Assembly (NCBI GenBank): GCA_963755915.1
Contig: CAVWLP010000002.1
Span: 3,136,001 to 3,200,000, forward strand
DNA length: 64,000 nt
Origin: an uncultured Phycisphaerales bacterium
GTDB lineage: Bacteria; Planctomycetota; Phycisphaerae; Tepidisphaerales; Tepidisphaeraceae
Reading direction: 5' to 3'
In this document: positions 21,958 through 48,653 of the stretch, in pieces
Layout: each line of letters starts with the position of its first letter
Position numbering within the stretch: the stretch's first letter is position 1
Notes under the pieces: generated by a model
The model's database searches: none
The model's input: the letters and a program-made list of their open reading frames with translations, nothing else
Told to the model about the DNA's origin: nothing
Position numbers and translations under genes: made by a program

Positions 21958-21986
21958 TTGACTCCCATTGTCGGCAACGATATATT
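21958..21986 (+). promoter_or_regulatory. Promoter TTGACT-N17-TATATT containing operator copy 1 (ATTGTCGGCAACGATATATT, 21967-21986)
   Basis: Canonical spacing, 10 nt before the GntR ATG; the motif recurs four more times. Confidence 0.75.
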
Positions 21987-21996
21987 ATCAAAGTCT

Positions 21997-22737
21997 ATGA
22001 GAAAGTTAACTCGAAAATCGGGACCAAAGAAACTGGGTTTTGACCGGCTTAGCGACAGGGCTTACGAGCAGTTGCACCGGGGGATAATCGAGGGCCGGTT
22101 CCAACCGGGTGAGCGGTTGATTGAATTGCGGATTTCCAAGCTGCTGAAGGTTGGTCGCACACCGCTGCGCGAGGCTTTTTTGCGTCTCGCCGCCGAAGGC
22201 CTGGTTGAAGGCGTCCCGGGCGTTGGGTTCTTCGTGAAGAACATGACGCTGAAGGACTTGGATGAATTGTTCCAGATCCGTGCGGCGCTGGAGTGCCTGT
22301 CGGTTCGTCTTTCGATGCAGCGCGGCTTCTCGGAACTGAGCCTGGTGGTCATGCGCGAATCCTGCGAGCGGTTGCGTAAGGCGCTAGTGGCGGGCGATTT
22401 CCGCAGCGCCAACAATGCCGATCTCGAATTTCATCGCGAGCTGATCGGGCTCGCCAACAGTCGCCGGTTGGAGACCGCCATACAGGGCAGCAATTTGCAG
22501 ATGCTGGCGTGGGAGTATCAGCGCAGCGGCCTCATGATCGTGCAGGATGAAAGCGATGTCGTGAAGGAGCATCTCCAGATTATCGCAGCGATGGAGCGGC
22601 GTGATGTTGACGAGGCGACAAGATTGCTCAACAGCCACATTACACTGGCCTTCCAGAAGGGGATCAAAGCGGCCATCGAACAGAAGGCGGTTGATTCGGT
22701 CCTCAACACCTCCGTGCCGATCGGAGATCTGTCGTAA
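21997..22737 (+). CDS. GntR/FadR family regulator with FCD domain (GntR-1)
   Basis: FQPGERLIE, VGRTPLREAFLRLAAEGLV, ELFQIRAALE, DLEFHREL, EHLQII. Confidence 0.92.
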   Translation: MRKLTRKSGPKKLGFDRLSDRAYEQLHRGIIEGRFQPGERLIELRISKLLKVGRTPLREAFLRLAAEGLVEGVPGVGFFVKNMTLKDLDELFQIRAALECLSVRLSMQRGFSELSLVVMRESCERLRKALVAGDFRSANNADLEFHRELIGLANSRRLETAIQGSNLQMLAWEYQRSGLMIVQDESDVVKEHLQIIAAMERRDVDEATRLLNSHITLAFQKGIKAAIEQKAVDSVLNTSVPIGDLS

Positions 22738-22913
22738 TTCAAGGATGAGCGAACTGGTTTGAAGGGCGAATTTTCGCTGACTGGCTCGGCCGGTTGACAG
22801 TTGTTCAGCGTCGGGTGGGAGTCGAGTTGATTTATTAGAGTGAGGGTGCGCTGATTGAGCAGGGCTGAGTTGCGCCTTCAATGGGTCTTGTGTCGCCATT
22901 TTGGGAGGCTTTT

Positions 22914-23795
22914 GTGCCGAGGGTCACTTCAGTTTCATCTTTGGGATGGGCGCATTACACCTTATACGAGGCGCTGCCAAGAATGGCGGCGAGAGGTTTC
23001 ACGCGAATCGAAATCGCGAGTTTTCAGAGCTATTGCTTTCATTTTAACTTTGGAAGCCCGACTCCAACGGAGTTGCGTCGCATGTTGGATGAACACGGCC
23101 TGGAACCGATTTGCCTGAATTTCGATTCCGGTACGTACCAGGCGTGGATCCCCGAGGAAATCAATCGTTTTGTCGCCGACTCAACGCGCAAAATCCAGCA
23201 GTTGAGCGAGGTGGGTATTCCGATGATGACCATGAGCTTCGGCACGCGAACAACGCGCAACGACCACAAATACCAGTTGGGAAACGAGCTAAAGGCCTAC
23301 GATGCGGTTGCGAAGGTTAGCGCTCGCTATGGCGTAAAAATGCTCCTCGAGGTGCCGCATCTTTACGGTAACATGTGGAGTGCCGAAGATGCGCTGTGGG
23401 TTTTTTCGCGCCTCGATAACGCAAATGTTGGCGCTCTGGTTGATTCGAGCCATTGGGGCATCATCGGCTACGATCTTCGCAGCTTTTTGATGGCGCTGGG
23501 CGATCGCCTGTGGCACGTGCACTTGCGCGATTCAGACGGGGAGGATACGGCCAATTTTCGCCAGCAGCTTGAATTGACCCCGGGTGACGGCTCGGTCGAT
23601 TTCCGCTATTTCGGGCAGGTGCTGGATTCACTGGGGTACTCGGGCGACGTTTCGCTGGATTTTGAGTATCGGGACAAGACGCTTGGGGCGATTGAAACCG
23701 AGTTCAGCAAGGGATTGAAGCAGCTTGAGAAGTTGGGCTGGGAATTGCCCGACCGTGTTCGCCGCGACGCTGTGGCGATGGTTTACGGGCCGTGA
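22914..23795 (+). CDS. Sugar phosphate isomerase/epimerase (xylose-isomerase-like TIM barrel)
   Basis: LLEVPH, LVDSSH, WHVHLRD, PGDGSVDF, SLDFE metal motifs; GGGAGG RBS before GTG 22914. Confidence 0.8.
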   Translation: MPRVTSVSSLGWAHYTLYEALPRMAARGFTRIEIASFQSYCFHFNFGSPTPTELRRMLDEHGLEPICLNFDSGTYQAWIPEEINRFVADSTRKIQQLSEVGIPMMTMSFGTRTTRNDHKYQLGNELKAYDAVAKVSARYGVKMLLEVPHLYGNMWSAEDALWVFSRLDNANVGALVDSSHWGIIGYDLRSFLMALGDRLWHVHLRDSDGEDTANFRQQLELTPGDGSVDFRYFGQVLDSLGYSGDVSLDFEYRDKTLGAIETEFSKGLKQLEKLGWELPDRVRRDAVAMVYGP

Positions 23796-23836: not shown

Positions 23837-23865
23837 TTGCCGTACATTGTCGACAGTGATATATT
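23837..23865 (+). promoter_or_regulatory. Promoter TTGCCG-N17-TATATT containing operator copy 2 (ATTGTCGACAGTGATATATT, 23846-23865)
   Basis: Same architecture as 21958 and 32948. Confidence 0.78.
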
Positions 23866-23875: not shown

Positions 23876-24658
23876 ATGACCAAAAAATGTTGCACGAGCC
23901 GTCTGGAAAGTAAGGGGTTTACGCTCGTCGAACTTCTCGTCGTGATCGGCATCATCGCGATCCTGATCTCCTTGTTGCTCCCCGCTCTCAACAATGCGCG
24001 AAACCAGGCCAACACCGTCGCCTGCATGAACAACCTCCGGCAGCAAGGGCTTGCGCTGCGAATGTATGCCAACGACAACCAGGGCCACCTGATGTACGCG
24101 CAGTATTACGCAGACTATCTTGGCCGGTATCTCGGCATCGCGGGCGACCCCACTCACGGCGTTTCAAGCGAAACCGAATCTCACAATGCCTGGTTTGGCG
24201 ACTACCTTCCGCGGGACCAGGTTTTCTGGTGCCCATCGTTGGGTACAGAGTGGGTCGGCGACGTGGCCTACGGCTTGAATTACCCCAACGTGTTCAGCGA
24301 CGGCGAAGTGGGTTGGAACACCGATTTTCCCGATGGCGCTGACAGCCGCAAGCTCGATAAGGTCCCAAGTACCACTTATCTCGTCTGTGATGCCCTTAAC
24401 GCTTATGTGTTCTCCCCAAACTGGTACCCGATGACGATCAGCCTTGCCCATATTGGCATTCCGGACTCCTATTTCTTCATCCAGTTCGAGCAGCAGCCGA
24501 TCCCTTACTATTTGTTTTTCAATGGCGCCCGTCCCCGGCACTCTGTCAAGCAGATGGGGATCAACTTTTTATTCTGCGATGGTTCGGTTCAAACGCATAC
24601 GCTTTACGACTTCTGCAAAAATAATTACCAGCTCTGGGGACATCCCGACCGGCCATAG
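23876..24658 (+). CDS. Prepilin-type N-terminal cleavage/methylation protein with H-X9-DG-like C-terminal motif (DUF1559-like)
   Basis: [28 protein letters not shown]......C.NNLRQ.G and [18 protein letters not shown]. Confidence 0.92.
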
Positions 24659-24781: not shown

Positions 24782-26638
24782 ATGGTTTCTCGTCGAACAG
24801 CGATTAATGGATCGATCCTTGCGCTAAGCGCGATCGCCGCTGCTCCAACCTTTGCGACGAATCTAGTGTTCAACAATTCGCGAAGCGATGGCAAAACCTA
24901 CGTGGGGTTTTATTCAAATTCGTCCGATCCTCTGAGTACCTACGGAACGGATGTGAACTTTGGCTCGGCCAGCACCGGAACGACAACGGTCGTTCAGAAT
25001 GCGAGCAACACCGACACCTTCAACTATCAGGAAGGCAACGGATGGACGCCGGACGTGGCGATGTCGTACAGCGTCGGCGGCGCTCAGGCGGTGGGAGTTT
25101 ACTATACGGGCGCTGCCAGCGATTGGCCCAATGGCGCGGCGCTGCTCGGCGGAAACTTTCCCAACGATCCTAACGACGATTTCTATTTCACCTTCACTCC
25201 TTCGCCGGGCTATGCGGTTCGGCTCAATTCGTACGAGCTCGTTGCCGGATCGTATGACGACATCCGAACGACCTGCACGGTATATGAGAACACGATCGGC
25301 GGGCCGGAAATGGTGCCGACGACAACCACCGTTGGCATCGCCGACTCACCTGGCAGTAGCTCCACCTTCAATCTGGCGGCGAATTATGGGTCGACGTTTT
25401 ATGAGGGGACGCTGATCCTCGACGTTCATCAAACCACCGGCAACCCTGGCGATGTGGGAATCACCAATCTGAATTTCGACCAGGAGTACGTCGCGGCGAC
25501 GGGTGAATGGGCTGTCGCTAGTTCCGGGGACTGGAATGTGGCCAGCAACTGGGGCGGCGACGCCGTGCCCAATGGAGTCGGCGCCACCGCGACCCTGGGC
25601 CAGGTCATTATGACTTCGCAGACCGTCTTCACGAATAGCGCGATAACGCTGGGCACACTGACATTCAACAATTCCAATCAGTACGTTCTCACGGGGGCCG
25701 GCAGCCTGACGCTGCAAACGAATTCCGGCAACGCGATGGTTAATGTCGAGCAGGGATCGCACACGCTGAACCTGCCGACAACGCTGGCGAGCAATACCAC
25801 GTTCGACGTCGCTTCTAGCGCAACGCTGGTGGTCGGAAACCCGCTGACGATCAATTCGGGGGAAACGCTGACGACCAGCGGTGGCGGCACAGTGACCTAT
25901 GAGTCAACGGTAACCGTAGCCAGCGACGCTTCGGTCGCGTTTGCCGACAACAGCAGCGCGGACGGGATCACGGTGGCTTCAGGGGGCGTGGCCAACATCA
26001 GCGGCTCAAAAGGGACCGTCGTTGAGGTCAACAACCTTTCCAACAGCGGAACATTCAACGTCGGCACCGGTGAGTTGCTCGTCGATTATGGATCGAATTC
26101 GGACCCGATCTCCTCAATTGTGGCACAAATCAAAAGTGGCTACGCCAACGGTCACTGGAACGGCACGGGTATCATCTCTTCCGCGGCACAAACACATGCC
26201 GGCCTTGTCTACGGACTGGGATTTGCTGACGGAAAAGACGGCGTGGTTGCGGGCCTGAGTTCCGGTCAAATCGAAGTGAAATACACGTTGCTTGGGGATG
26301 CGAATCTTGACGGTGTCGTCAACGGCGCTGACTTCAGCATTCTGGCGGCCAACTTCGGCCAGAGCGCGAACGGCTGGGACCAGGGCGACTTTGACTACAA
26401 CGGCGTTGTGAACGGCAGCGACTTCGCGGCTTTGGCGGCGAATTTCGGCCAGGGCGCGAGCACGGGCTCGGCCGCGACCGCCAGCGACGTCGCTGCCCTT
26501 GACGCGTTCGCGGCGGCCAACGGCCTGCCCGCGCCGACCTTTGCAAGTGTGCCTGAGCCCGCCTCGATGGGGCTGCTCGTAGTCGGCCTGGTCGGGATGA
26601 TTGGCCGCCGCCGTAGAAACAGATGCTCAAACCCCTGA
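24782..26638 (+). CDS. PEP-CTERM surface protein 1: uncharacterised N-domain + beta-strand-rich stalk + dockerin-like Ca-binding pair
   Basis: Signal peptide; GDANLDGVVNGADFSILAANFG / GDFDYNGVVNGSDFAALAANFG; VPEPAS + TM + RRRR; GGAGG RBS. Confidence 0.9.
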   Translation: MVSRRTAINGSILALSAIAAAPTFATNLVFNNSRSDGKTYVGFYSNSSDPLSTYGTDVNFGSASTGTTTVVQNASNTDTFNYQEGNGWTPDVAMSYSVGGAQAVGVYYTGAASDWPNGAALLGGNFPNDPNDDFYFTFTPSPGYAVRLNSYELVAGSYDDIRTTCTVYENTIGGPEMVPTTTTVGIADSPGSSSTFNLAANYGSTFYEGTLILDVHQTTGNPGDVGITNLNFDQEYVAATGEWAVASSGDWNVASNWGGDAVPNGVGATATLGQVIMTSQTVFTNSAITLGTLTFNNSNQYVLTGAGSLTLQTNSGNAMVNVEQGSHTLNLPTTLASNTTFDVASSATLVVGNPLTINSGETLTTSGGGTVTYESTVTVASDASVAFADNSSADGITVASGGVANISGSKGTVVEVNNLSNSGTFNVGTGELLVDYGSNSDPISSIVAQIKSGYANGHWNGTGIISSAAQTHAGLVYGLGFADGKDGVVAGLSSGQIEVKYTLLGDANLDGVVNGADFSILAANFGQSANGWDQGDFDYNGVVNGSDFAALAANFGQGASTGSAATASDVAALDAFAAANGLPAPTFASVPEPASMGLLVVGLVGMIGRRRRNRCSNP

Positions 26639-26719: not shown

Positions 26720-28576
26720 ATGGTTTCTCGTCGAAAGGCAATGAAAGGCTCGATTGCAGTGCTGAGCGCGGTAGCTGTGCGCTCTGCATTTGCCACGGAT
26801 CTGGAATTTGACAACACCCGTAGCGACGGGCAGTCGTACGTGGGGAGCTATTCGGACACGACCGATCCTTTGAGCACGTACGGAACGGATGTGAACTTCG
26901 GCTCGGCGACGACGGGAAGCACGAGCGTCTATCAGAATTTCATCAACACCTACACGTTCAACTACAACATCGGCAACGGGTGGACGCCGAATGTGTCGAT
27001 GGCGTATAGCTCTGCCGGCGCCCAGGCGGTGGGCATTACTTACACCGGCCCGGCGAGCGTTTGGCCCAACGGCGCTGCCGAATTACAGGGAATGGGTGCC
27101 AACAATCCCAATGATGATTTCTATTTCACGTTCACGCCGGCCCCGGGTTATGCCGTACGCATTAACTCCTACGATCTAGTCAACGGCTCCTACGGCGCCA
27201 TTTCGTCCGCCGGGACGATTTACGAAGGCGCCGTCGGCGGTCAGACGTTGGTGCCAACCTTTGTGCCGGCTAACGTAGGCTCGGGACCCGGGCAGGATGT
27301 TACGGTCGACCTGCTGGATGACTACGGTTCGACATTTTATACGGGTACGCTGATTTTAGACGTTCACATGACCAACGGTAATCCCGGCGATCTTGGTCTT
27401 ACCAACTTGAACTTCGATCAGGAGTTGGTGGCGGGTCCCGGTGCGTGGGGAAATTTTGGTTCCGGTGACTGGAACAACGCAAACAACTGGGGCGGCGGTG
27501 TTGTGCCGAACGGTGTCGGCACGTCGGCTACCTTTGGCAGCGCAATCAGTTCCGCCGAAACGGTCTACACGAACAGCCCGGTCACCGTCGGCTCGATGAC
27601 ATTCGACAACACGAATGAATACCTCATCGGCGGTTCGGGCCCCCTGACGTTGCAGAACAACTCCGGCAGCGCGACCGTTAACGTGCAGGAAGGGACGCAT
27701 GAAATTGACCTGCCAACGATCGTTGCCAGCAACACCGTGTTTGATGTCACTTCCGGTGCTTCACTTATTATCGGTAACCCATTGACGATCAACTCCGGAA
27801 ACACGCTCACAACCACCGGTGGTGGCGCGGTCACCTATGAATCGAAAATAACCGTGCAGAGCAGTGCGTCGATCGCCTTTTCCAACTCCACGCATGCCTA
27901 TGAGCTTTCGGTGGCGTCCGGCGGCAATGCGAGCATCACGAGTCCAAATGGAGGCGTCATCGTCGAAGTCGACAATCTCGCCAACAGCGGAACCGTAGAT
28001 ATTGCCAACAACGAGATGATCGTGAACTACGGCTCCGGGAGCGACCCCGTTCAGTCGATTCGGCAGGAGCTCCTTTCCGGCTATAACAACGGCGGCTGGA
28101 ACGGCACGGGAATTATCTCCTCCGTCGCGCAGACGCCGACCAACGGTTTGCGCTACGGCGTCGGCTGGGCGGACAGCAAGGACAATGTCGTATCAGGCCT
28201 GAGCTCGGGTCAGATCGAAATCAAATACACACTCCTCGGCGATGCAAATCTCGACGGCACCGTGAACGGAAGCGACTTCAGCATTCTGGCTGCCAACTTC
28301 GGCCTCGGTCATACCAATTGGGACCAGGGCGATTTCCTTTTCGCGTCCTCCGTCAACGGGTCCGACTTCAGTGCTCTGGCCGCCAATTTTGGCCAGGGCG
28401 ACAACTACGCCGCGGGAACCACCGCGGCTGACTGGGCTGCGCTGGACGCCTTTGCCGCCGCCAATGGTTTACCTTTGCCAACTCCGGCAGCTGTGCCTGA
28501 GCCCGCGTCGATGGGTATTCTCGCGCTGGGCGTAGTCGGCCTGATCAGCCGCCGCCGACGGCGAGTTATCGCCTGA
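26720..28576 (+). CDS. PEP-CTERM surface protein 2, paralog of protein 1
   Basis: Same architecture: DPLSTYGTDVNFGS, GNGWTPNV, GDANLDGTVNGSDF, VPEPASMG...RRRRR. Confidence 0.9.
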   Translation: MVSRRKAMKGSIAVLSAVAVRSAFATDLEFDNTRSDGQSYVGSYSDTTDPLSTYGTDVNFGSATTGSTSVYQNFINTYTFNYNIGNGWTPNVSMAYSSAGAQAVGITYTGPASVWPNGAAELQGMGANNPNDDFYFTFTPAPGYAVRINSYDLVNGSYGAISSAGTIYEGAVGGQTLVPTFVPANVGSGPGQDVTVDLLDDYGSTFYTGTLILDVHMTNGNPGDLGLTNLNFDQELVAGPGAWGNFGSGDWNNANNWGGGVVPNGVGTSATFGSAISSAETVYTNSPVTVGSMTFDNTNEYLIGGSGPLTLQNNSGSATVNVQEGTHEIDLPTIVASNTVFDVTSGASLIIGNPLTINSGNTLTTTGGGAVTYESKITVQSSASIAFSNSTHAYELSVASGGNASITSPNGGVIVEVDNLANSGTVDIANNEMIVNYGSGSDPVQSIRQELLSGYNNGGWNGTGIISSVAQTPTNGLRYGVGWADSKDNVVSGLSSGQIEIKYTLLGDANLDGTVNGSDFSILAANFGLGHTNWDQGDFLFASSVNGSDFSALAANFGQGDNYAAGTTAADWAALDAFAAANGLPLPTPAAVPEPASMGILALGVVGLISRRRRRVIA

Positions 28577-32947: not shown

Positions 32948-32976
32948 TTGCAAGCGATTGTCGACAGTGATATATT
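32948..32976 (+). promoter_or_regulatory. Promoter TTGCAA-N17-TATATT containing operator copy 3 (ATTGTCGACAGTGATATATT, 32957-32976)
   Basis: 20-mer identical to 23846-23865. Confidence 0.78.
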
Positions 32977-33143
32977 TGTGGTTGTTATGAATATACCAGT
33001 GTGGGAACCCTGATAGTAGTCGCCGCGCCTGGAACTGAGCATGTTGTTTTCCAGTCGACGAAAACCAACTGTTTGAAGAACTTCGGCAATCATGTGGTGA
33101 TGGTCATCACGTATGCCACCAGGCATTAATTGGAGGTATGATT

Positions 33144-33983: not shown

Positions 33984-33997
33984 AATGGAGTTTGCGC

Positions 33998-40696: not shown

Positions 40697-42361
40697 ATGA
40701 ACCTCGAGCAGCAGTTCCAATCCGGATATGCGCTTCATCGGGCCGGACGGCTTATGGAGGCGGAGAAGATCTATCGCCAGGTTCTGGAGCGCCGGCCCAA
40801 TCATGCAGATGCGCTGCATCTTCTGGGCCTGCTATCGGCCCAGTCGGGGCGGCTTGAGGCCGCGGCGGACTTGCTCCAGCGGGCGGTCCGAGTCAATCCC
40901 ACTTCGGCTGAAGCCTGCGGGAATCTTGGCAATGTATATAAGGACCTCCGCCGGCTGGATGAGGCGATTGATTCATATCAGCAGGCCATCCGGCTGAAGT
41001 TTGAGCTGGCCGAGGCGTACAGCAATCTCGGCAATGTGCTTAAGAGCCAGGGGCGGCTCGATGAGGCGATCGCCTCGCATCGGCAAGCGATCAAGCTGCG
41101 CCCCGATCTTGCGCAGGCGCACAGCAATCTGGTTTACGATCTGCATTTTCATCCTGGCTACGACGCTGCGATGCTTTATGATGAACATCGGCGCTGGAAT
41201 CAGCAGCACGCTGCGCCATTTACGCAATCCATAGTTCCCCATGCCAACGATCGCAGCGTGGATCGTCCCCTGAAAATCGGTTATGTCTCGCCCGATTTTT
41301 GCGAGCACCCGGTGGGGAGATTTATCCTGCCCCTCTTGGCTGCGCATGATCGCGACCGGTTCGAGGTGTATTGCTACTCACATGCGCCTCGCGTTGACGG
41401 GGTTACAGAGCTGATTCGCCGTCATGCGAGCCAGTGGCGAAACACCTGCGGCCTGAGCGACGAACGCACCGCGCAAATAATCCGGGAAGATCAGATCGAC
41501 ATTCTCGTCGACCTGACAATGCACATGTCACGCAACCGGATGTTGCTGTTTGCACGCAAGCCGGCGCCGGTTCAGGTGACGTATCTCGCTTACTGTTCCA
41601 CCACTGGCCTGGATGCAATCGACTACCGCTTTACCGATCCTCATCTCGATCCCACAGGATCCGACGACTCCATCTACCAGGAAACTTCGATCCGGCTTCC
41701 TGAGACATATTGGTGTTACCAGTTTGACGAACATAGTCCCGAGGTAAGCCCCTCACCCGCGACGAAGAATGCGGAGATAACCTTCGGTTGCCTGAACAAC
41801 TTCTGCAAGGTCTCGCCGCAGGCCTTGGAGGTATGGAGTGAGATATTGCGCGAAAATCCTAAATCGCGGCTGATTCTGCATGCCCACGAAGGCGGCCATC
41901 GCCAGCGCGTGCGCGATCAGCTCCAGAGTCGGCGAATTGATTCGCGGCGGCTGGAGTTCATGGGGTGGGTAGGCTATTACGATTATCTGCGGCAATATCA
42001 GCGGATTGACATCGCCCTGGATCCATTTCCGTGCAATGGCGGCACGACAACGTGTAACGCGCTGTGGATGGGGGTGCCCGTGATCACGCTGACAGGCAAA
42101 ACGGCGGTCGGGCGCGGGGGCGTAAGCGTTTTGCGGAATGTCGGATTGCCCGAGCTGATCGCGGACTCAACACAAAACTATGTTCAAATCGCAAACGAGC
42201 TGGCTTGTAATCCGTCTCGTCTGAGGGAGCTTCGCCAAAACCTGCGAGATCGCATGCGTGCTTCCCCTTTAATGGATTCGTCCGGGTTCGCCCGCAACGT
42301 TGAGGCCGCCTACCGCCGGATGTGGCAAAGCTGGTGCGCGAAGGGCGCGACTTCGAAATAA
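40697..42361 (+). CDS. TPR + GT41 (SPINDLY/OGT-like) glycosyltransferase, copy 3 (~4 TPRs), intact
   Basis: KIGYVSPDFCEHPVGRF, FARKPAPVQVTYLAY, FGCLNNFCKV, DIALDPFPCNGGTTTCNALWMGVPV. Confidence 0.9.
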   Translation: MNLEQQFQSGYALHRAGRLMEAEKIYRQVLERRPNHADALHLLGLLSAQSGRLEAAADLLQRAVRVNPTSAEACGNLGNVYKDLRRLDEAIDSYQQAIRLKFELAEAYSNLGNVLKSQGRLDEAIASHRQAIKLRPDLAQAHSNLVYDLHFHPGYDAAMLYDEHRRWNQQHAAPFTQSIVPHANDRSVDRPLKIGYVSPDFCEHPVGRFILPLLAAHDRDRFEVYCYSHAPRVDGVTELIRRHASQWRNTCGLSDERTAQIIREDQIDILVDLTMHMSRNRMLLFARKPAPVQVTYLAYCSTTGLDAIDYRFTDPHLDPTGSDDSIYQETSIRLPETYWCYQFDEHSPEVSPSPATKNAEITFGCLNNFCKVSPQALEVWSEILRENPKSRLILHAHEGGHRQRVRDQLQSRRIDSRRLEFMGWVGYYDYLRQYQRIDIALDPFPCNGGTTTCNALWMGVPVITLTGKTAVGRGGVSVLRNVGLPELIADSTQNYVQIANELACNPSRLRELRQNLRDRMRASPLMDSSGFARNVEAAYRRMWQSWCAKGATSK

Positions 42362-42373: not shown

Positions 42374-44740
42374 ATGAACGATAAGGAACAACTCGACCTC
42401 GCCCTGACCCATCATCGTGCTGGCCAATTGCGCGAGGCGGAGACTATCTATCGGCAGATTCTTCGCGGCGCCCTGACGATGCCGATACACTACACCTTTT
42501 AGGCGTGCTCGCCGCGCAAGCGGGACGGCCCGACGCAGCCGTGGATCTGATCCGTCGGGCCATCGGAGTTCGCGGCGCGAATCCGATCTTTTACCTCAAT
42601 CTCGCCAACGCCCAGGCCGATATGGGGCGTCCGGGCGACGCCATTGAATCCTACGGCCGCGCCATCCAGCTGAAGCCCGATTACATCGACGCGCACATAA
42701 ATCTCGGCATTGCGTTTCAGGCCATACGGGATTTCCAGAAGGCGATTGCTTCGTATCGAAATGCAATTCAATTGAATCCGAACCTTCCCGTCGCGTATGG
42801 AAATCTCGGTAACGCTTTGCGGAGCGCCGGGAAATTCGATGAAGCGATCGCCGCCTGCCGCCGGGCGATTCAGCTCGCTCCCGATTATGCTGAAGCATAT
42901 GCGAATCTTGCAAATGCACTTAGAGATGTCGGGCAGATCGATGAAGCGATTGCGGGATTCCGAGAAGCCTTGCGTATCAAACCCTCGCTCGCCGCGGCTC
43001 AAAATAATTTGGGCAACATATTGAGCGAGCTGGGAAGACTTGAAGAAGCCGTCACATGCTATCGCGAAGCGATTCGATACCAGCCCAACTTTTCCGATGC
43101 CCAAAACAATCTCGGTAACGCGCTTCAGGCTCTGGGCCAGCTCGATGCCGCCGCGGCGGCGTATCGACGGTCGATTGATCTCGACCCGAAATTTGCCGAA
43201 GCGCATGCGAATCTCGGCAATGTTCTTTGCGAGCTGCGAAATACGGACGAAGCCATCGCTTCCTATGAGCGGGCGATTCACCTCAAGCCCGACTACGCCG
43301 AGGCGCATAGTAATCTTGGCCTCTCCCTGGCGGAAAAAGGAAGACTCGATGAATCAGTCGCATCGCTGCGGCGCGCCATTGAGATCAACCCGAATTTCCC
43401 GCAGGCGTTCAACAACCTTGGCAATTCGCTGAAGGATATGGGCCGTCTTGAAGAGGCGATCGCCTCTTATCGAAAGGCGATCCAATTAAAGCCCGACCAC
43501 GCCTCGGCTCACAGCAACCTGGTTTATGCGATTCATTTCGATCCATCCTTCGACGCTGGCACGATTTATCAGGAGCATCGGCGTTGGAATGATCTGCATG
43601 CCAGGCCCCTCAGGAAATTCATCCTGCCGCACAAAAATGATCGCGACTCCGATCGCCTGCTTCGAATCGGCTACGTGTCGCCGGATTTCCGCAGCCACGC
43701 GGTTGGGAGATTCGTCTATCCGCTGATCGCGGCGCACGACCCAAAGAATTTCGAGATTTACTGCTACTCCGACGTTCGCCAACCCGACAAATTTACCGAA
43801 ACATTTCGCCAAAGTACGAATCAATGGCGGAACATCGTCGGCTTTTCCGATCAGGCCGTTGCAGACCTGGTGCGCGCTGATCGGATCGACGTGCTCATAG
43901 ATCTGACCATGCACATGGCGCGGAATCGCATGTTGATGTTCGCGCAAGCCCGCGCCGGTTCAGGTGACCTATCTGGCGTACTGCTCGACCACGGGCGTGG
44001 AAACGATCGATTACAGGCTGACCGACCCATATATCGATCCACCGGGCACTACCGAACATGTTTACTCCGAGAGATCAATTTGGTTGCCGGAAACCTATTG
44101 GTGTTACTCCCCGCAAAGCCCCAGTCCGGATACAACGCCGCCTCCATCGCTCAGCAGTGGCCGCGTGACCTTCGGTTGCCTCAACAATTTCTGCAAAGTT
44201 TCGCCGTCGGCCCTGGAGGTGTGGGCTGAGATACTTCAGAACAATTCAAATTCGCGGCTCATTCTTCACGCTCACGAAGGCAGCCACCGCCAGCGTGTCC
44301 GCGACCTGCTCCAGGGCCGGGGGATCGATCCGCAGCGGTTGAAATTCACCGGGTGGATTCCCTTTTACGACTATCTCCGGCAGCACGAAAAAATCGACAT
44401 TGCCCTGGATCCCTTTCCCTGCAACGGCGGAACCACAACATGCGATGCGCTGTGGATGGGAGTCCCCGTGATATCTCTGATCGGGCAGACCGCAGTCGGG
44501 CGCGGCGGAGTAAGCGTGCTTCACAACATTGGATTGCCCGAGCTGATCGCGGAGTCGACACAGCAGTATGTGCGGATTGCAAATGATCTGGCGTGCGATC
44601 CGGCTCGACTAAGCGAGCTTCGCCAGGGCATGCGTGAGCGAATGCGTGCTTCGCCGCTGATGGATTCCGCTCGCTTTGCGCGTAGTGTCGAAGCCGCGTA
44701 CCGCCAGATGTGGCGAACATGGTGTGCGAACCCCGGTTGA
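42374..44740 (+). CDS. TPR + GT41 glycosyltransferase, copy 4 (~11 TPRs; frameshifts ~42464 and ~43943)
   Basis: True start MNDKEQLDLALTHHRAGQLREAE at 42374; catalytic region very similar to copy 3. Confidence 0.87.
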
Positions 44741-44785
44741 ATCGAAAATAGGGTTACGATTGTCTATTGGACCGTTTTCACGGAT

Positions 44786-44805
44786 AATATATTGTTGTCG
44801 ACAAT
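44786..44805 (-). promoter_or_regulatory. Operator copy 4 (ATTGTCGACAACAATATATT on the minus strand) overlapping rightward promoter TTGGAC-N17-TATTGT
   Basis: Match to the consensus, upstream of the dehydrogenase/enolase pair. Confidence 0.72.
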
Positions 44806-44839: not shown

Positions 44840-45829
44840 ATGAAATCCCCAAAAGCCCAATGTCGCATTGCACTCCAGGTGCCGCTTCCGCCCGCGCAGT
44901 TACAGCGGCTACGCGGGTTATCGCCCAAAATAGAAATTCTTGAGGATGCCGATAAGTTTTTCAAGGCCGACATCGTTTATACCGGCGGTGAGGGTTTCGA
45001 TCCGTCTGAGGTGCCCGATTTGCGCTGGGTGCAAGTCAATCTTGTGGGCATCGAAAGCCTCATGGGCGGACCCCTCGCGAAGAGCGGCATTTCGGTGGCC
45101 AACGTCCGCGGCGCCTATGCGACGAGCGTGGCCGAGTTCGCAATCGCGCTCCTCCTCTCCTTAGGCCGCCAATTGCCATTGTGCCTTCAGTTCCAATTCG
45201 CCTCGAGGTGGGACGATTCGATGTGCGGCACTTCCTTTTACGGAAAGACCCTGGCGGTCGTCGGCTACGGCAGCATCGGCCGGCAGATTGCGCGAATCGC
45301 CCATGCGATGGGAATGCGGATCCTGGCCTGCAAGCGCGATCCCGAAATTCGCCGCGAGAACTCATCTTTCCTATTTCCAGGCACGGGCGACCCGGAGGGC
45401 GTCCTTCCAATCAAGTGGTTCGGCACGAATCAAATCCGCGAAATGTTCGAGGAAACCGATCATGTGGCGGTCACCTTGCCACTGACTTCGCAAACCCGAG
45501 GGCTGATCGGCACCCGTGAGCTCAGGGCGCTACCATCGCACGCCCTGTTCGTGAATGTTGGACGTGGCTCGATTGTGGACGAAGAGGCAATTGCCGATGC
45601 GCTCACCGCCGGGAGAATTGCCGGCGCGGCACTCGACGTCTTTTCACAAGAGCCGTTGGCTGCCGACAGTCCCCTTTGGCGCGCACCCAATTCGTTGATC
45701 ACGCCGCATATCGGTTCCTACACAACCGAGCAGGCTGCACATGCGGGGGAAGTTCTGATCGAAAACGTGCGCCGCGATCTGGCGGAAGAGCCACTGCTGA
45801 ACATTGTAAACTTTGCCACGGGATACTGA
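44840..45829 (+). CDS. D-2-hydroxyacid dehydrogenase family protein
   Basis: VVGYGSIG, VTLPLT..TRGLI, VNVGRG, LDVFSQEPL, ITPHIG. Confidence 0.9.
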   Translation: MKSPKAQCRIALQVPLPPAQLQRLRGLSPKIEILEDADKFFKADIVYTGGEGFDPSEVPDLRWVQVNLVGIESLMGGPLAKSGISVANVRGAYATSVAEFAIALLLSLGRQLPLCLQFQFASRWDDSMCGTSFYGKTLAVVGYGSIGRQIARIAHAMGMRILACKRDPEIRRENSSFLFPGTGDPEGVLPIKWFGTNQIREMFEETDHVAVTLPLTSQTRGLIGTRELRALPSHALFVNVGRGSIVDEEAIADALTAGRIAGAALDVFSQEPLAADSPLWRAPNSLITPHIGSYTTEQAAHAGEVLIENVRRDLAEEPLLNIVNFATGY

Positions 45830-47079
45830 TGAAAATCACCGACATGCGAGTGATGCGATTGAGCGGGCCGCTCGAGCATGGGCAGGGGGGCGAGGAGGGC
45901 GTCTTCTCCAAGTTTATCGTACGAATCGACGCCGAGAACGGGGAATATGGTCTGGGCGAGGCCGAGGACTTCTTCGGCGTTCGCGAAGGCCTGGAATATA
46001 TCCGCGCCCTGATCGTCGGACGCAGCGTCTTCGACATCAGGCCGCTCGTTTCGGAAGTGATGTATGGCACGGTTCCGCCGCACGATCAGCACCTTGCGCC
46101 GATGTACGATCCGAATCGATTTGCCGGCGCGTGTTTTCCCGTGCGCGTCTGTTCTCCGACCGCAACGACCGTCGGGCCCATCTGCTGGGCCGCAAGCGGC
46201 GTGGAGATCGCTTTATGCGACCTGGTTGGAAAGATCGCCAGGATGCCGGTCTATGCACTGCTCGGCGGCAAGTTCCGCGATCACGCGAAAGTGTACCTCG
46301 ATCGAAGCGCACCGGATGGCGCCGAGGCGCGCGAACTTGCAGGCTGGCAGCGGATGGCGCGGACAGTTGCAGAGTCGGAATTCAAGATGATGAAGTTCGA
46401 CGTCGAATGTCTCTGCGCCGATGCGACCACCGACTTCTGGAACCGGGCGCTCTCAATGCAACAACTCAGGCTGATCGTCGATCGCCTCACAGCGGTGAGA
46501 GAAGCCGCGGGCTGGGAGGTCGATGTCTGCATCGATTGCCATATGCACTACAACGCGCCCGACGCCATTCGGCTCGCAAACGAACTTGCGCCGCTGAAAC
46601 TGACCTGGATGGAAGACCCGACGCCCATCGTCAATCCCGACGCCGCCGTGGAAATTCGCGCCAAAAGTCCTATTCCTATTTGCCTCGGTGAAATGTTTAC
46701 CTCCGAGCAATTTCGGATGTTCATCGATCGAAAGGCCGTGGATATTCTGCATCCTGACGTGCTATTCACCGGCGGACTTTTTGAAACTCATCGCATCGGC
46801 CAATATGGAGAGCTCCACTACCTTCCCATGGCGATGCACGGCAACGGCGGGAGCCTCGCGACGATTGCCGCGGCCCACGTCGCGGCGGCCACGCGCAACT
46901 TCCTTGTCCTTGAATACCATTTCATCGAAAGCGAGTGGATTTCCCACTATGTGCAACGCGAAGGCGCGCTGCTCTTTCGTCGCGGCGCGGTTCCCCTCAC
47001 CGACGCCCCGGGGTTGGGCGTTACGCTCGACGAGCCAACCTGCCGTAAATATCTCGCGCCGGGCGAAAAGTTCTTTTAA
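45829..47079 (+). CDS. Mandelate racemase/muconate lactonizing enzyme family (probable sugar-acid dehydratase)
   Basis: YGLGEA, SGVEIALCDL.GK....PVYALLGG, KMMKFD, IDCH, WMEDP, LGEM, MHG, LEYH, PGLG. ATG overlaps the upstream TGA. Confidence 0.88.
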   Translation: MKITDMRVMRLSGPLEHGQGGEEGVFSKFIVRIDAENGEYGLGEAEDFFGVREGLEYIRALIVGRSVFDIRPLVSEVMYGTVPPHDQHLAPMYDPNRFAGACFPVRVCSPTATTVGPICWAASGVEIALCDLVGKIARMPVYALLGGKFRDHAKVYLDRSAPDGAEARELAGWQRMARTVAESEFKMMKFDVECLCADATTDFWNRALSMQQLRLIVDRLTAVREAAGWEVDVCIDCHMHYNAPDAIRLANELAPLKLTWMEDPTPIVNPDAAVEIRAKSPIPICLGEMFTSEQFRMFIDRKAVDILHPDVLFTGGLFETHRIGQYGELHYLPMAMHGNGGSLATIAAAHVAAATRNFLVLEYHFIESEWISHYVQREGALLFRRGAVPLTDAPGLGVTLDEPTCRKYLAPGEKFF

Positions 47080-47100
47080 TCCCTCGCGATGCAGATCCCG

Positions 47101-48615
47101 TTAATCAAATTGAAACGCATAGAGTTTCGCGGTCTCGATATGGAACACGAGCCGAATGGGCTTGCCCGCAAGCTCGCGAATGCTTTTTCCGTTTTTCCAT
47201 TCAACTACGCCTCGAATCGCATCTTTCGAAAATGCGGCGCACTCCTCTTTCGTAAAACCGGCGATTGGCTTTCCCTGCTCATCCAGAATCTCTACAAGGA
47301 TCGATCCTTTCTCCGAATCCGCGTTAATCTCCAGCCGTTCCCCTGCAAATGTCAGCAGCTTTGTCGTCATCTTTCCGGCCGGATAATTCGCACAGAGCGA
47401 CGCAAACCCATCTCGCCTCAACGTGGCCAAACCGATCGAATATCTGGTCCCGGTCGATACCTTCGATTGAGGCCTCGCCCGCTTGGCGTTTGCGTGCTGT
47501 TCCCAGCTCAGGTCATACGATTCATCCGACCCGGTATAGTAAAACCAGATCTCGTCGCCCACTTCAATGACGGTTGACGATGTGAAGACCATCCCCGCAT
47601 CGAAATCGCCCTCATTTCCGCAGGGAATGAAATCGCGGCGTTCGCTTGTGCGATGCCAATAGCCGTAGGGATTGGCGTCTCTCGAATAGACGAGCTGCGC
47701 GTTCATGATTCCGTCGTTGCCGTTTCCATGGCCGGTTCGCGTTGCCGAAATATCAAACAGCCAGATGATCCCCAGGCGAAGGCCCTCGTAGCGGAATCCG
47801 GTCATGCCGTAAATATCCGAAAGATAGCAGGCGGGCTCGTCATATTTCAGAAGATCCCTGAAGCGGTAGAGCCGCTCGGCAACGCGGGCATCATCGGTTT
47901 CGTCGGCCGATAAAATTGTTTGCGAGATTCCCCAATTGACGAAATCCCGGCTGGTATGGATGGCCACCGAGCGCCGGAATTTTCCGCCGATGGTGCTCCC
48001 ATATTTTGCGAACGCAATATACTCCTTTGTCACCGGATCATAGCAGCAGGTACACATGTCGCTTCCCTGGATCACCGGATTGCGATCGTTTGGGCTCCAG
48101 TGAATCCCATCCGGCGAGAAAAATACCGAATACCCATGCCTGAAATTCGATCGAACATCGTTTTTGAAGTCCGCCAGGTCTTTGAAGGTGTAAACGATCA
48201 TTCGATACCGTCGCTGCGGGTCCGGTTCATCTGCCGCATGCAAAACAGTTGGCAAGCGAAGCGCGCCCTTGAGCACCGCGTTGGACATCGGCCGGCCGTT
48301 GTGATGCACAGCGTTGAGCGTTGGCCGTTCCCACTTCACTCCATCTTTTGAGATCGCCATGCAAACGCTGTCGATGTCTGCCTTCGAAATCGCGTTGTAG
48401 TACATCCGGAATTCTTGCTGTTGCGGGTCATACAAGACATTGCCGTATAGCTGAATGTAATAATCTTCCCACCAGTCGCGTTGAATCAGCAGCGGATTGG
48501 AGGGATGTTTTTTGGCCTGGTGAAAAGTCCGGCGGACGCCGGCCAATTCCTCAATCGCGTGGTCGTCGATGAACAACTGTTTTTCGTGCCCAATCGCAAG
48601 CATGGTTGATGTCAT
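47101..48615 (-). CDS. Beta-propeller glycoside-hydrolase-like protein, copy B (paralog of 39134-40648)
   Basis: Same length (504 aa); shared blocks NPVIQGSDMCTC, DIYGMTGFRYEGLRLG, AQLVYSRDANPYG, RRDFIPCGNEGDFDAGMV. Confidence 0.65.
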   Translation of the reverse strand: MTSTMLAIGHEKQLFIDDHAIEELAGVRRTFHQAKKHPSNPLLIQRDWWEDYYIQLYGNVLYDPQQQEFRMYYNAISKADIDSVCMAISKDGVKWERPTLNAVHHNGRPMSNAVLKGALRLPTVLHAADEPDPQRRYRMIVYTFKDLADFKNDVRSNFRHGYSVFFSPDGIHWSPNDRNPVIQGSDMCTCCYDPVTKEYIAFAKYGSTIGGKFRRSVAIHTSRDFVNWGISQTILSADETDDARVAERLYRFRDLLKYDEPACYLSDIYGMTGFRYEGLRLGIIWLFDISATRTGHGNGNDGIMNAQLVYSRDANPYGYWHRTSERRDFIPCGNEGDFDAGMVFTSSTVIEVGDEIWFYYTGSDESYDLSWEQHANAKRARPQSKVSTGTRYSIGLATLRRDGFASLCANYPAGKMTTKLLTFAGERLEINADSEKGSILVEILDEQGKPIAGFTKEECAAFSKDAIRGVVEWKNGKSIRELAGKPIRLVFHIETAKLYAFQFD

Positions 48616-48633
48616 TTATTCTGCCCTCGTGCT

Positions 48634-48653
48634 ATTGTCGACAATGATATATT
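48634..48653 (+). promoter_or_regulatory. Operator copy 5 (ATTGTCGACAATGATATATT) overlapping leftward promoter TTGCGA-N17-TATCAT
   Basis: Perfect ATTGTCGACAAT palindrome 18 nt upstream of the copy B start. Confidence 0.75.

Follow-up and report, generated by a model that had tools for sequence, protein, structure and literature searches.

A predicted local GntR regulon connecting a pseudopilin, PEP-CTERM surface proteins and glycosidase-like enzymes in a soil planctomycete

Gene content of the locus

The window, that is, the whole 64-kb stretch of DNA analyzed here, comes from a soil planctomycete and includes a locus that encodes a DUF1559-type pseudopilin, five PEP-CTERM proteins, a GH138 relative, propeller proteins, a GFO oxidoreductase, an enolase-type dehydratase and two TPR-GT41 glycosyltransferases (Table 1). 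The gene families named in an earlier reading of the bare sequence (the sequence-only reading) were borne out by Pfam and NCBIfam matches.

Table 1. Genes, predicted promoters (P) and predicted operators (O) of the locus, in window coordinates
Feature	Position	Strand	Evidence and description
Alpha/beta-hydrolase, esterase-like	19175..20221	-	downstream of MFS gene; Pfam Abhydrolase_7, E 3.5e-15
MFS/GPH-type transporter	20235..21716	-	divergent from gntR; Pfam MFS_1 9.6e-10, MFS_2 6.6e-07
P1/O1	21958..21986	+	TTGACT-17-TATATT; imperfect predicted operator ATTGTCGGCAAC in spacer
GntR regulator with FCD domain	21997..22737	+	FadR subfamily; proposed repressor; Pfam
Xylose-isomerase-like TIM-barrel enzyme	22881..23795	+	Pfam AP_endonuc_2 5.1e-26
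P2/O2	23837..23865	+	TTGCCG-17-TATATT; predicted operator in spacer
DUF1559 / H-X9-DG pseudopilin-like protein	23876..24658	+	prepilin cleavage/methylation motif; Pfam N_methyl 1.1e-06
PEP-CTERM protein 1	24782..26638	+	signal peptide, N-domain A, repeat stalk, dockerin-like module, PEP-CTERM
PEP-CTERM protein 2	26720..28576	+	architecture as in protein 1
PEP-CTERM protein 3	28596..30821	+	TIM-barrel-homologous N-terminal domain, stalk, PEP-CTERM
PEP-CTERM protein 4	30829..32703	+	N-domain A, stalk, PEP-CTERM
P3/O3	32948..32976	+	TTGCAA-17-TATATT; predicted operator in spacer
Leader	32977..33137	+	161 nt between P3 and PEP-CTERM protein 5
PEP-CTERM protein 5	33138..33914	+	N-domain A directly fused to PEP-CTERM
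Secreted (beta/alpha)8-barrel protein	33992..35179	+	unnamed family; AF2 pLDDT 89
Distant GH138 relative	35216..37828	+	NF049878 alpha-D-galacturonidase, E 3.1e-61
GFO/IDH/MocA oxidoreductase	37829..39130	+	Pfam; NCBIfam matches all under cut-off
Propeller protein a, 504 aa	39134..40648	+	large unnamed family, distantly related to GH130/GH32
TPR + GT41 glycosyltransferase a	40697..42361	+	Pfam Glyco_transf_41 3.9e-53
TPR + GT41 glycosyltransferase b	42505..44740	+	Pfam; split into two ORFs
P4/O4	44760..44805	+	TTGTCT-17-GATAAT (44760-44788), then predicted operator
D-2-hydroxyacid dehydrogenase family enzyme	44840..45829	+	Pfam 2-Hacid_dh_C 7.5e-50
Enolase-superfamily sugar-acid dehydratase	45826..47079	+	galactonate/mannonate dehydratase-like; Pfam MR_MLE_C 8.7e-49
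Propeller protein b, 504 aa	47101..48615	-	70% identical to propeller a
P5/O5	48634..48672	-	TTGCGA-17-TATCAT (48672-48644); perfect palindrome 48634-48645
Motif sites	21967+, 23846+, 32957+, 44786-, 48634+		window scan; 1 mismatch at 21967

The regulator contains the Pfam GntR (1.6e-16) and FCD (2.1e-22) domains and has no match to a PrpR-specific family in NCBIfam. A second GntR/FCD gene (52913-53641), the product of which is 28% identical to the first, lies 4 kb past the locus. The TIM-barrel enzyme behind gntR, for which every NCBIfam match falls under the cut-off, is probably of the sugar isomerase, epimerase or dehydratase class and co-transcribed with gntR. The pseudopilin scores above the cut-offs of TIGR04294 (21.2 bits; cut-off 19) and TIGR02532 (25.6; cut-off 16.3), and under that of Pfam SBP_bac_10 (21.4 bits; cut-off 23.3).

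The head domain of the PEP-CTERM proteins may be a rare beta-sandwich, to judge from an all-beta model of PEP-CTERM protein 5 with a pLDDT of 61 (poor for N-domain A) and from weak CBM and jelly-roll fold matches with TM-scores of only ∼0.3. The N-terminal domain of PEP-CTERM protein 3 is instead 35% identical to the secreted TIM-barrel protein of the locus. The latter has no sequence match in Pfam, NCBIfam or PDB and is modelled as glycosidase-like: its top fold matches are GH5, GH35 and Cwp19 (Z 14-15), and it has invariant acidic residues. For the U395 family, which is found at 475 other loci, synteny was retained in a single genome among the best 80, that of the close relative G001 discussed below.

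The GH138 relative is a distant one, with 207 bits on NF049878 compared with an equivalog cut-off of 1300; it aligns with BPa0997 from PDB (E 4.3e-53), with Glu at both of the two positions checked. This protein excepted, the locus encodes no member of a CAZy family for which a substrate is known. The profile of the propeller family matches GH130 phosphorylases (E 3e-11). The second GT41 gene appears as two ORFs because the assembly lacks 2 bp at 43940, where short-read contigs from three runs have an extra CG. The start of the dehydratase gene overlaps the stop of the dehydrogenase gene, and the NCBIfam matches of the dehydratase are under cut-off.

A 20-bp element confined to the locus

A scan of the window with ATTGTCGACARYRATATATT, allowing two or fewer mismatches, yields exactly five matches, namely, the copies listed in the sequence-only reading, including the one-mismatch copy, whereas 100 dinucleotide-preserving shuffles of the window give none (0 expected vs 5 found). 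A genome scan, suggested in that reading as a check for occurrences at unrelated promoters, found 6 matches at up to three mismatches in the 6.63-Mb genome: the five window sites and a weak match (three mismatches) at C3:40255, between two convergent ORFs. The exact 10-bp core TTGTCGACAA is present at 7 genomic places, two of them within the locus; the five other copies are without the AT-rich extension and, according to the ORF listing, lie in or beside long ORFs.

The motif core, ATTGTCGACAAT, is a perfect 12-bp palindrome that fits the pattern TKGT/ACMA, with GT and AC 2 nt apart, which PMC4494728 gives as the FadR-subfamily pattern for the GntR, PrpR and UxuR groups. It is identical, letter for letter, to the 12-nt operator predicted for PrpR (PA0797), an FCD-GntR repressor of Pseudomonas aeruginosa, the own upstream region of which was shifted in EMSA (PMC9765439). 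The likeness extends to the type of regulator: as described, PrpR/PmiR is an autoregulated repressor of the methylcitrate operon that combines a GntR-wHTH and an FCD domain and responds to a carboxylic-acid effector, but its targets are unrelated genes of propionate catabolism, under one promoter region compared with five here (PMC9765439, PMC9728974).

Because paralogs abound in the locus (N-domain A occurs in four proteins, and there are two propellers and two GT41 genes), upstream regions could have been copied along with genes, so that the repeats would be descendants of one duplicated or mobile sequence without a regulatory role. This origin is highly improbable given that the five sites are alike only over the 20-mer and the TTG of the -35 hexamer, with unrelated flanks, and that they precede different gene families in both orientations; furthermore, the element is intact in relatives in which the surrounding sequences have diverged.

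Promoter context and conservation

Each of the five sites overlaps a sigma-70-like promoter match that points towards the next gene. The -35/N17/TATATT arrangement claimed for three of the sites is indeed present at P1-P3, and the first of these is, as also claimed, the promoter of gntR itself, directly before its start. The ATG codons of gntR and of the pilin gene are each 10 nt past the respective -10. O4 (44794-44805) covers the expected transcription start, and the O5 palindrome overlaps both the -10 and the expected start of P5. Promoter-like matches in the site regions occur at chance density (8 vs 10.1 expected; 5 vs 5.2 expected), which makes P4 and P5, above all, weak predictions. The proposal that a site stands in front of each transcription unit holds overall, except that the site at 48634 precedes, by 18 nt, the minus-strand propeller gene rather than a plus-strand unit.

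Among 60 relatives searched besides the source genome, the motif was found only in G001, a same-genus relative with 85% identity that retains the five sites in an unchanged layout. The sites are intact although the surrounding intergenic regions are just 64% and 73% identical, with changes confined to the RYR positions: the imperfect O1 is retained as such, the O3 20-mer is identical, both hexamers and the predicted operator of P4 are kept within a region of 63-64% identity, and O5 forms a conserved island. The 161-nt leader is 95-97% identical compared with a block mean of 85%, with no Rfam match, no convincing ORF and a fold z-score of -0.37.

A metagenome contig, L029, contains TTGCCG-N17-TATATT with a perfect palindrome between the TIM gene and the pilin gene, so that P2/O2 precedes the pilin gene there as well as in G001; the gene order is GntR (60% identity), TIM (71%), pilin (43%) and an N-domain-A PEP-CTERM protein (45%). 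Conservation is thus seen in a single close relative and on a 5-kb contig that ends before the gntR promoter. The GntR ortholog, 95% identical in G001, co-occurs with the motif in G001 and L029, and neither was found in the other 11 of the 12 other genus genomes.

Given that the sites are unique, overlap promoter matches and are conserved in G001 and L029, the prediction of a local, autoregulated GntR regulon is well supported. The element could also be a promoter/operator module for a factor other than the adjacent GntR, either the second FCD-GntR encoded 4 kb past the locus or a sigma factor with a preference for the AT-rich stretch, the ATATATT half being conserved to the same degree as the palindrome. 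This is unlikely, considering the fit of the palindrome to the FadR-subfamily pattern, its identity with a published predicted FCD-GntR operator, the co-occurrence of motif and ortholog, the presence of one site within the promoter of the GntR gene and the low similarity of the second GntR.

Predicted glycan capture and comparison with known systems

The locus as a whole is best explained, with a probability of about 0.6, by a GntR-operator regulon for inducible capture of a glycan at the cell surface, its cleavage and its cytoplasmic breakdown; inducible glycan capture with sugar-acid breakdown appears to be the most likely function of these gene families. In this view, the FadR-type (FCD) GntR encoded in the locus would use the five motifs, each embedded in a promoter, as its operators, and by binding the 12-bp palindrome as a dimer it would block RNA polymerase in the -35/-10 spacer (P1-P3), at the transcription start (P4) or in the -10/start region (P5). 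Repression of all five units would accordingly hold until a small effector of the carboxylate type, probably an intermediate of the breakdown, frees the repressor and turns them on. No RNA run was found to contain the locus. Unit 1 (gntR and the TIM-barrel sugar enzyme) would be under the weaker, imperfect operator; unit 2 would consist of the pseudopilin and four PEP-CTERM surface proteins; unit 3 of PEP-CTERM protein 5, the secreted TIM barrel, the cytoplasmic GH138 relative, the GFO oxidoreductase, the GH130/GH32-like propeller a and the two TPR-GT41 transferases; unit 4 of the 2-hydroxyacid dehydrogenase and the sugar-acid dehydratase; and unit 5 of propeller protein b. The glycan would be captured and cut at the cell surface, and the imported oligosaccharide degraded in the cytoplasm to a sugar acid. 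Signal peptides are absent from the GH138 relative, the GFO enzyme and the two propellers, so that an importer would be needed. The divergent MFS transporter is a possible candidate without an operator of its own, the closest being that at 21967, ∼250 bp from the start at 21716 (picked from the translation); whether the alpha/beta-hydrolase downstream of it belongs to the regulon is uncertain.

A real regulon could also serve the building or remodelling of the cell's own surface (adhesion, flocculation, a glycoprotein or exopolysaccharide coat) rather than feeding on foreign glycans, with the GT41 enzymes glycosylating the PEP-CTERM proteins and the glycosidase-like proteins trimming the cell's own polymer. 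PEP-CTERM/exosortase systems are classically tied to exopolysaccharide and floc formation. PEP-CTERM protein 4 weakly matches the flocculation protein PepA (NCBIfam, E 3.1e-07, under cut-off), and unit 3 holds the two TPR-GT41 genes, for which a catabolic pathway offers no evident role and one of which (a) weakly matches the adhesin N-glucosyltransferase model NF049992 (E 2.2e-11). Nevertheless, such a role is considerably less probable than glycan feeding: units 3-5 include catabolic enzymes (the GH138 relative, dehydratase, 2-hydroxyacid dehydrogenase and GFO oxidoreductase), N-domain A and the glycosidase-like TIM-barrel domain are joined in a single ORF in L029, PEP-CTERM genes have no excess of GT41 paralogs in their vicinity genome-wide (7/34 vs 7.9 expected), and the ligands of FadR-type regulators are typically carboxylic-acid substrates (PMC4494728).

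The predicted glycan-capture regulon resembles the alginate system of Zobellia galactanivorans as described in PMC7641319. There, the GntR repressor AusR has operators in several promoters, and alginate breakdown intermediates are the effectors that lift repression; here, too, the regulator gene lies inside the locus and one predicted operator recurs in several promoters. The Zobellia system, however, is a SusC/SusD-type PUL with known alginate lyases, in place of which the present locus encodes the pseudopilin and PEP-CTERM proteins. SusD has no match in the whole genome, and the three matches to TonB-dependent receptors are all outside the window, in agreement with the sequence-only reading. 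Of its broader proposal, a GntR regulon for SusCD-independent capture of an acidic glycan, the local single-operator regulon and the lack of SusD stand, whereas an acidic glycan as substrate, its capture by the pilin and PEP-CTERM proteins and a place for the divergent MFS in the regulon are inferences.

A planctomycete analogue of a PUL has precedent as a concept: SusCD-free 'PULs' in Planctomycetota, defined by CAZymes, sulfatases and regulators, have been published (PMC11685898). As in these and in the PULs of Bacteroidota, genes for glycan-active enzymes lie together with those for a transporter and a regulator and are presumably co-induced, although, compared with Bacteroidota, there is no SusC/SusD pair. 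The words 'pilin', 'pili' and 'GntR' do not occur in PMC11685898; here, co-regulation is defined by a cis element. The new element is this cis-regulatory link among the pilin, surface proteins and enzymes, and the five predicted operators provide a testable handle on a possible planctomycete capture of polysaccharides without the usual outer-membrane transporters.

Under the 'fishing rod' hypothesis for Planctomycetes (Boedeker et al. 2017), as presented in PMC12078418, dedicated pilin-like proteins are proposed to attach to polysaccharides and draw these into the periplasm. The pilin-like gene that heads unit 2 fits this picture; the hypothesis as given there names no gene family, regulator or partner, whereas here a specific DUF1559 gene shares a predicted operator with surface proteins and glycosidase-like enzymes. 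The genome encodes exosortases and T2SS/T4P ATPases, and 26 of its 43 pilin-like genes are located within 6 kb of PEP-CTERM genes, whereas 500 random trials averaged 10.0 and never exceeded 18.

The operator, its promoters and the GntR regulator

The regulon is real and unusually clean. The five copies of the 20-bp motif ATTGTCGACARYRATATATT that the sequence-only reading had claimed are all present at their positions in the window (see table), with 0 chance matches in 100 shuffles, and no further site-like match with up to three mismatches was found there. A scan of the 6.63 Mb genome (three contigs, the window being C2:3136001-3200000), again with up to three mismatches allowed, yields six matches, the five window sites and one at C3:40255 that carries three mismatches and lies between convergent ORFs. 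With five of the six matches in the locus, this distribution speaks against the motif occurring at unrelated promoters throughout the genome, the counter-case that had been raised along with the original proposal. The first 12 bases of the 20-mer form a perfect palindrome (ATTGTC-GACAAT). The exact 10-bp core is found at five more places in the genome, each of these lacking the AT-rich extension and located in or beside long ORFs, and all five were judged to be chance occurrences. A genome-wide scan for locally repeated exact 14-mers, to which degenerate operators are invisible, returned mostly paralogous coding repeats; a k-mer scan detected a dense array of short repeats at C3:455209-458959, with the common word GTGTCCATTCAA and spacings of ~70-360 bp.

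Promoter-like matches with their operators, start-codon stretches, units and selected genes of the locus
Feature	Coordinates	Strand	Description
P1	21958-21986	+	TTGACT-17-TATATT, before gntR; operator at 21967 (+), one mismatch, in the 17-bp spacer
P2	23837-23865	+	TTGCCG-17-TATATT, before the pilin gene; operator at 23846 (+), in the 17-bp spacer
P3	32948-32976	+	TTGCAA-17-TATATT, before PEP-CTERM protein 5; operator at 32957 (+), in the 17-bp spacer
P4	44760-44788	+	TTGTCT-17-GATAAT, before the dehydrogenase gene; operator at 44786 (-), 5 nt downstream of the promoter match, over the expected start
P5	48672-48644	-	TTGCGA-17-TATCAT, -10 overlaps the palindrome; operator at 48634 (+), 18 nt upstream of the minus-strand propeller gene
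TATATT-to-ATG stretch, gntR	21987-21999
TATATT-to-ATG stretch, pilin gene	23866-23878
TATATT-to-ATG stretch, L029	1627-1639
Unit 1			gntR and xylose-isomerase-like TIM-barrel enzyme
Unit 2			Pseudopilin (prepilin motif, H-X9-DG tail), then four PEP-CTERM proteins with signal peptides
Unit 3			PEP-CTERM protein 5, secreted 395-aa protein, 870-aa GH138 relative, GFO/IDH/MocA oxidoreductase, 504-aa protein, two TPR-GT41 transferases
Unit 4			D-2-hydroxyacid dehydrogenase and enolase-superfamily dehydratase of galactonate/mannonate type; stop and start codons overlap
Unit 5			Second 504-aa protein, 70% identical to the first
Divergent from gntR			MFS/GPH-type transporter and esterase-like hydrolase, candidate regulon members
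Secreted 395-aa protein	33992-35179	+	TIM-barrel protein, unit 3
First 504-aa protein	39134-40648	+	Propeller protein, unit 3
Second 504-aa protein	47101-48615	-	Propeller protein, unit 5
GT41a	40697-42361	+	First TPR-GT41 transferase
GT41b	42505-44740	+	Second TPR-GT41 transferase

All five sites overlap a promoter-like match that faces the next gene, one of them in front of gntR, and the consensus scan recovered the -35/N17/TATATT context previously reported for three sites, including the gntR promoter. These promoters are defined solely as consensus matches to a sigma-70-like pattern, and because such matches occur at chance density (8 compared with 10.1 expected, and 5 compared with 5.2), they are informative only in that they coincide with the operators. 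The location of the operators in the spacer, on the -10 element or on the start site implies repression of the predicted promoters. Since ATATAT reads the same on both strands, a -10-like element is available whichever way the 20-bp module is turned. This would account for the retention of the entire 20-mer even at sites where it runs opposite to the gene. In all five copies of the gntR and pilin promoters (two in the window's own genome, two in the same-genus relative G001 and one in the metagenome contig L029), an ATG is found 10 nt after TATATT and the gene start has no Shine-Dalgarno sequence; this arrangement suggests that the gntR and pilin mRNAs are leaderless.

The protein encoded by gntR (21997-22737) combines an N-terminal GntR wHTH domain (Pfam, 1.6e-16) with a C-terminal FCD domain (2.1e-22), both above the cut-off. 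Regulators of the FadR subfamily are described as binding A/T-rich palindromes with TKGT/ACMA boxes, in which the GT-AC distance is 3 nt, or 2 nt in GntR, PrpR, UxuR and some other groups, as responding to carboxylic acids, and as tending to autoregulation that is weaker than the regulation of structural genes (PMC4494728, excerpt). The site ATTGTCGACAAT, that is, TTGT-CG-ACAA, fits this pattern, and the locus displays the GntR+FCD regulator, the TKGT/ACMA palindrome and the operators in predicted target promoters, here including the regulator's own, that characterize a FadR-subfamily regulon. Papers retrieved with the motif mostly contain it in cloning primers, the exception being a study of the FCD-GntR repressor PrpR (PA0797), for which the predicted motif is the 12-nt palindrome ATTGTCGACAAT and which shifts its own upstream region (PMC9765439, excerpt); under the name PmiR, PA0797 has been footprinted on that same promoter (PMC9728974, excerpt). 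The identity of the palindrome with the PrpR consensus strongly supports the reading of this site by some FCD-GntR protein; that this reader is the locus's own GntR, the predicted candidate, is not proved by it. Just downstream of the locus (52913-56498), a second GntR/FCD gene, starting at 52913 and 28% identical to the first, is followed by genes for a DAO-type oxidoreductase, an HpcH/HpaI aldolase and an SDR, whose products might carry the breakdown of 2-keto-3-deoxy acids further, controlled by another regulator.

Conservation of the locus

Among the 60 relatives searched besides the window's own genome, the motif was found in G001 only, where its five copies follow each other in the same order. 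G001 and the window align collinearly across 38 kb (85.1% identity). Intergenic identity is 64% at 44741-44839 and 73% at 48616-48714, with the operator cores intact in both, and the operators of the two genomes differ at RYR positions only; in this sequence comparison, they are conserved islands. The imperfect operator in gntR's own promoter is kept in G001, imperfection included, and at P4, the -35 and -10 hexamers are kept whereas the spacer has diverged. The GntR regulator itself has an ortholog (95% identity) only in G001 among the 12 other genomes of the genus, and none was detected in 60 genera of the family, where only paralogs at about 27-35% identity were found. Likewise, among the best 80 of 475 loci encoding homologs of the 395-aa protein, the locus is kept only in G001; near these homologs, GFO genes were found in 5 cases, pilin-like genes in 4, genes for 504-aa-type proteins in 3 and GntR in 1.

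A more distant counterpart is L029, a 5.2-kb contig that was found by scanning metagenome contigs with an alignment of N-domain A, the head shared by four of the PEP-CTERM proteins. It encodes, in this order, a GntR/FCD protein (60% identity, cut by the contig end), the TIM-barrel enzyme (71%), the promoter with the operator, a DUF1559-type pilin (43%) and an N-domain-A PEP-CTERM protein (45%), so that the operator module and the gene order recur in a genome with only 43-71% protein identity. The L029 promoter consists of TTGCCG, a 17-nt spacer with a perfect ATTGTCGACAAT and TATATT, with the pilin ATG 10 nt on. The presence of this site before the pilin gene indicates that the operator, the promoter frame and their position survive divergence to ~45% protein identity.

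The 161-nt leader between P3 and the gene for PEP-CTERM protein 5 (32977-33137) is 95-97% identical to G001, which ranks it with the best-conserved 100-bp stretches in the 38-kb block (mean identity 85%), and holds a GTCGAC core within TTTTCCAGTCGACGAAAA. It has no Rfam match, no significant fold (z-score -0.37), no repeat elsewhere in the genome and no counterpart in L029; an Rfam scan of 20-50 kb at E <=1 gave one sub-threshold chance match only. A minus-strand ORF (32803-33126) and small plus-strand ORFs at the leader were rejected as genes because their frames are broken in G001 and nearly all changes alter a residue.

Between 16348 and 54282, the window and G001 differ by >50 small insertions or deletions, of which many are single-base changes within coding sequence. 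The two genomes, each in few contigs, have low completeness scores of 81% (the window's own) and 66% (G001), and the indels fit assembly errors more than real frameshifts. One of them, a 2-bp gap in a CG run at 43940 relative to G001, splits GT41b into two overlapping ORFs; the extra CG is carried by short-read contigs of three runs from one study, which indicates that the gene is intact and was split by an error in the assembly.

Protein families of the locus

The pseudopilin matches PF07963 (28.4 bits, cut-off 21.2), TIGR02532 (25.6, cut-off 16.3) and the H-X9-DG model TIGR04294 (21.2, cut-off 19), has a prepilin cleavage/methylation motif visible in the translation and scores 21.4 bits with PF07596 (DUF1559, SBP_bac_10), under the cut-off of 23.3. 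All five PEP-CTERM proteins match PF07589 above the cut-off. A C-terminal stalk that carries a dockerin-like module and PEP-CTERM is common to dozens of proteins of this genome. N-domain A, the ~230-residue head of PEP-CTERM proteins 1, 2, 4 and 5, is found nowhere else in the genome and is rare in public data, where its relatives in 5.8 billion clusters amount to 11 of near length and 4 that are longer. Its model is all-beta and poor (pLDDT 61), with weak fold matches to jelly-roll and carbohydrate-binding modules (TM about 0.3).

The head of PEP-CTERM protein 3 is 35% identical to the secreted 395-aa protein, which is confidently modeled as a (beta/alpha)8 barrel (pLDDT 89) and has glycosidases (GH5, GH35, Cwp19) as its best fold matches (Z 14-15, rmsd about 4 A, 275-296 residues aligned), with no single family standing out among the glycosidase matches of this search; the invariant acidic residues include D159, E161, D270, E273, D319 and D355. 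In L029, N-domain A (40% identity) and a barrel of the 395-aa type (63%), which are separate proteins in the window, are encoded by a single ORF (3369-5246). This fusion supports N-domain A as an accessory module of the barrel, probably one of a binding type. A second gene of the 395-aa type (47% identity) is present in G001 (C5:344508-365599), beside a GFO-type gene 62% identical to that of the window, and in a distant metagenome contig, L033, an N-domain-A-like gene (25% identity) is directly followed by a gene for a 504-aa-type propeller (23%; 5037-6617).

The GH138 relative is clearly homologous to BPa0997, a solved enzyme of GH138 (alpha-galacturonidases acting in RG-II breakdown), with E 4.3e-53 over residues 92-689, and scores 207 bits with the alpha-D-galacturonidase model NF049878, far under the equivalog cut-off of 1300. 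In the HMMER alignment, its E295 and E356 correspond to two Glu residues of the BPa0997 chain (893 residues; indices 294 and 361), the chain index being assumed to equal the published numbering; the title of the PDB entry mentions E361 (as E361S), and E294 is presumably one of the catalytic glutamates. A literature search with the PDB code 6N1A found no relevant paper. At E <=1e-40, the GH138 relative is present in 3 of 401 genomes of the phylum, the window's own counted in.

The 504-aa proteins are members of an unnamed family of very large size (7,316 representative clusters at E <=0.001). The family profile matches GH130 beta-1,2-mannoside phosphorylases (E 2.8e-11, over about 200 residues only) and, more weakly, GH32 enzymes, and GH32N was detected in 12 of 42 family members (E <=0.01); the first 504-aa protein matches no Pfam family. 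Membership in GH130 or GH32 was rejected, as the match is not at family level, and these proteins were classified as distant relatives in the superfamily. With the first 504-aa protein and the 395-aa protein, the ESM Atlas returned unnamed clusters only, and PDB searches with either single sequence gave no match. Elsewhere in the genome (C3:1477249-1489465), two genes for such propellers, one apparently in two frames, cluster with an enolase-type gene and a GT41 paralog (51% identity), and paralogs of the dehydrogenase and of the epimerase-like gene are located within about 30 kb of this cluster.

GT41a consists of a TPR array and a PF13844 domain (E 3.9e-53), which is also found in the C-terminal part of GT41b (E 3.2e-34). 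The GT41 paralogs are greatly expanded in this genome (34 loci in a tblastn search with GT41a, one of them in the window at about 10046-11662, minus strand), with no enrichment of the 34 loci near PEP-CTERM genes (7 compared with 7.9 expected). Altogether, three enzyme families of the locus have no characterized member.

A possible system for glycan capture

How planctomycetes take up polysaccharides without the TonB-dependent SusC/SusD is an open question, and few protein families of unknown function in this phylum are as large as that of the DUF1559 proteins. Putative glycan-degrading enzymes are grouped in the locus (the GH138 relative, the glycosidase-like barrel and the propellers distantly related to GH130 and GH32), which would suit a PUL. 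Unlike SusC/SusD PULs, the locus lacks an adjacent pair of a SusC-like transporter and a SusD-like lipoprotein. The absence of SusC/D and of a TonB-dependent receptor, noted from the sequence earlier, is borne out by domain searches: SusD (PF07980) has no match in the genome, which is 81% complete, and none of the three matches to the TonB-dependent receptor domain (PF00593) falls in C2:3136001-3200000. SusCD-free 'PULs' have already been described in Planctomycetota (PMC11685898, excerpt), and a pilin 'fishing rod' for polysaccharide uptake has been proposed, with no genes assigned to it (PMC12078418). In the titles and abstracts searched, no description was found of one operator tying a pilin-like gene to PEP-CTERM proteins and glycosidase-like genes. 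Here, one DUF1559 gene is predicted, from the operator that they share, to be controlled together with surface proteins, glycosidase-like enzymes and a sugar-acid pathway, so that a vague association becomes testable at the bench, and the uncultured organism is not needed.

From family membership, we infer each step of the following scheme. When the substrate is absent, a GntR dimer would sit on all five operators, the imperfect copy before gntR allowing some synthesis of the regulator; basal enzyme activity would then yield an acidic intermediate, whose binding to the FCD domain would free the repressor. The induced cell would present the N-domain-A proteins and a barrel enzyme on stalks sorted by exosortase, release a free barrel enzyme and produce the pseudopilin. 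Oligosaccharides, possibly imported through the MFS/GPH transporter, would be cleaved in the cytoplasm by the propellers together with the GH138 relative. The released sugars would be acted on by the GFO and TIM-barrel enzymes, and the dehydratase and 2-hydroxyacid dehydrogenase would convert the resulting sugar acid. Such logic has been demonstrated for the AusR alginate system of Zobellia, where an intermediate binds the regulator and lifts repression (PMC7641319), and the regulatory design of the locus can be described as a FadR-type local regulon with AusR-type control of a utilization system.

The predicted function, capture and breakdown of a glycan, is plausible. The broader proposition, that the pseudopilin and PEP-CTERM proteins with lectin- or glycosidase-like heads make up an inducible capture and uptake machine that replaces SusC/SusD in Planctomycetota and relatives, is tentative and, with a probability of 0.3, less likely than not. 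If it is true, the locus, with its defined repressor, operator and five promoters, would be the first case where such a machine can be switched and dissected, and the very large DUF1559 family would gain a role in glycan acquisition.

The genome encodes three exosortases and many T2SS/T4P ATPases, along with at least 92 PEP-CTERM matches and 43 pilin-like loci. When PEP-CTERM tails were identified with a custom regular expression (175 tails), 26 of the 43 pilin-like genes were found within 6 kb of one; in 500 random trials, the mean count was 10.0 and the highest was 18. This genome-wide pairing suggests that the combination of a pilin with PEP-CTERM proteins is a general design in this organism.
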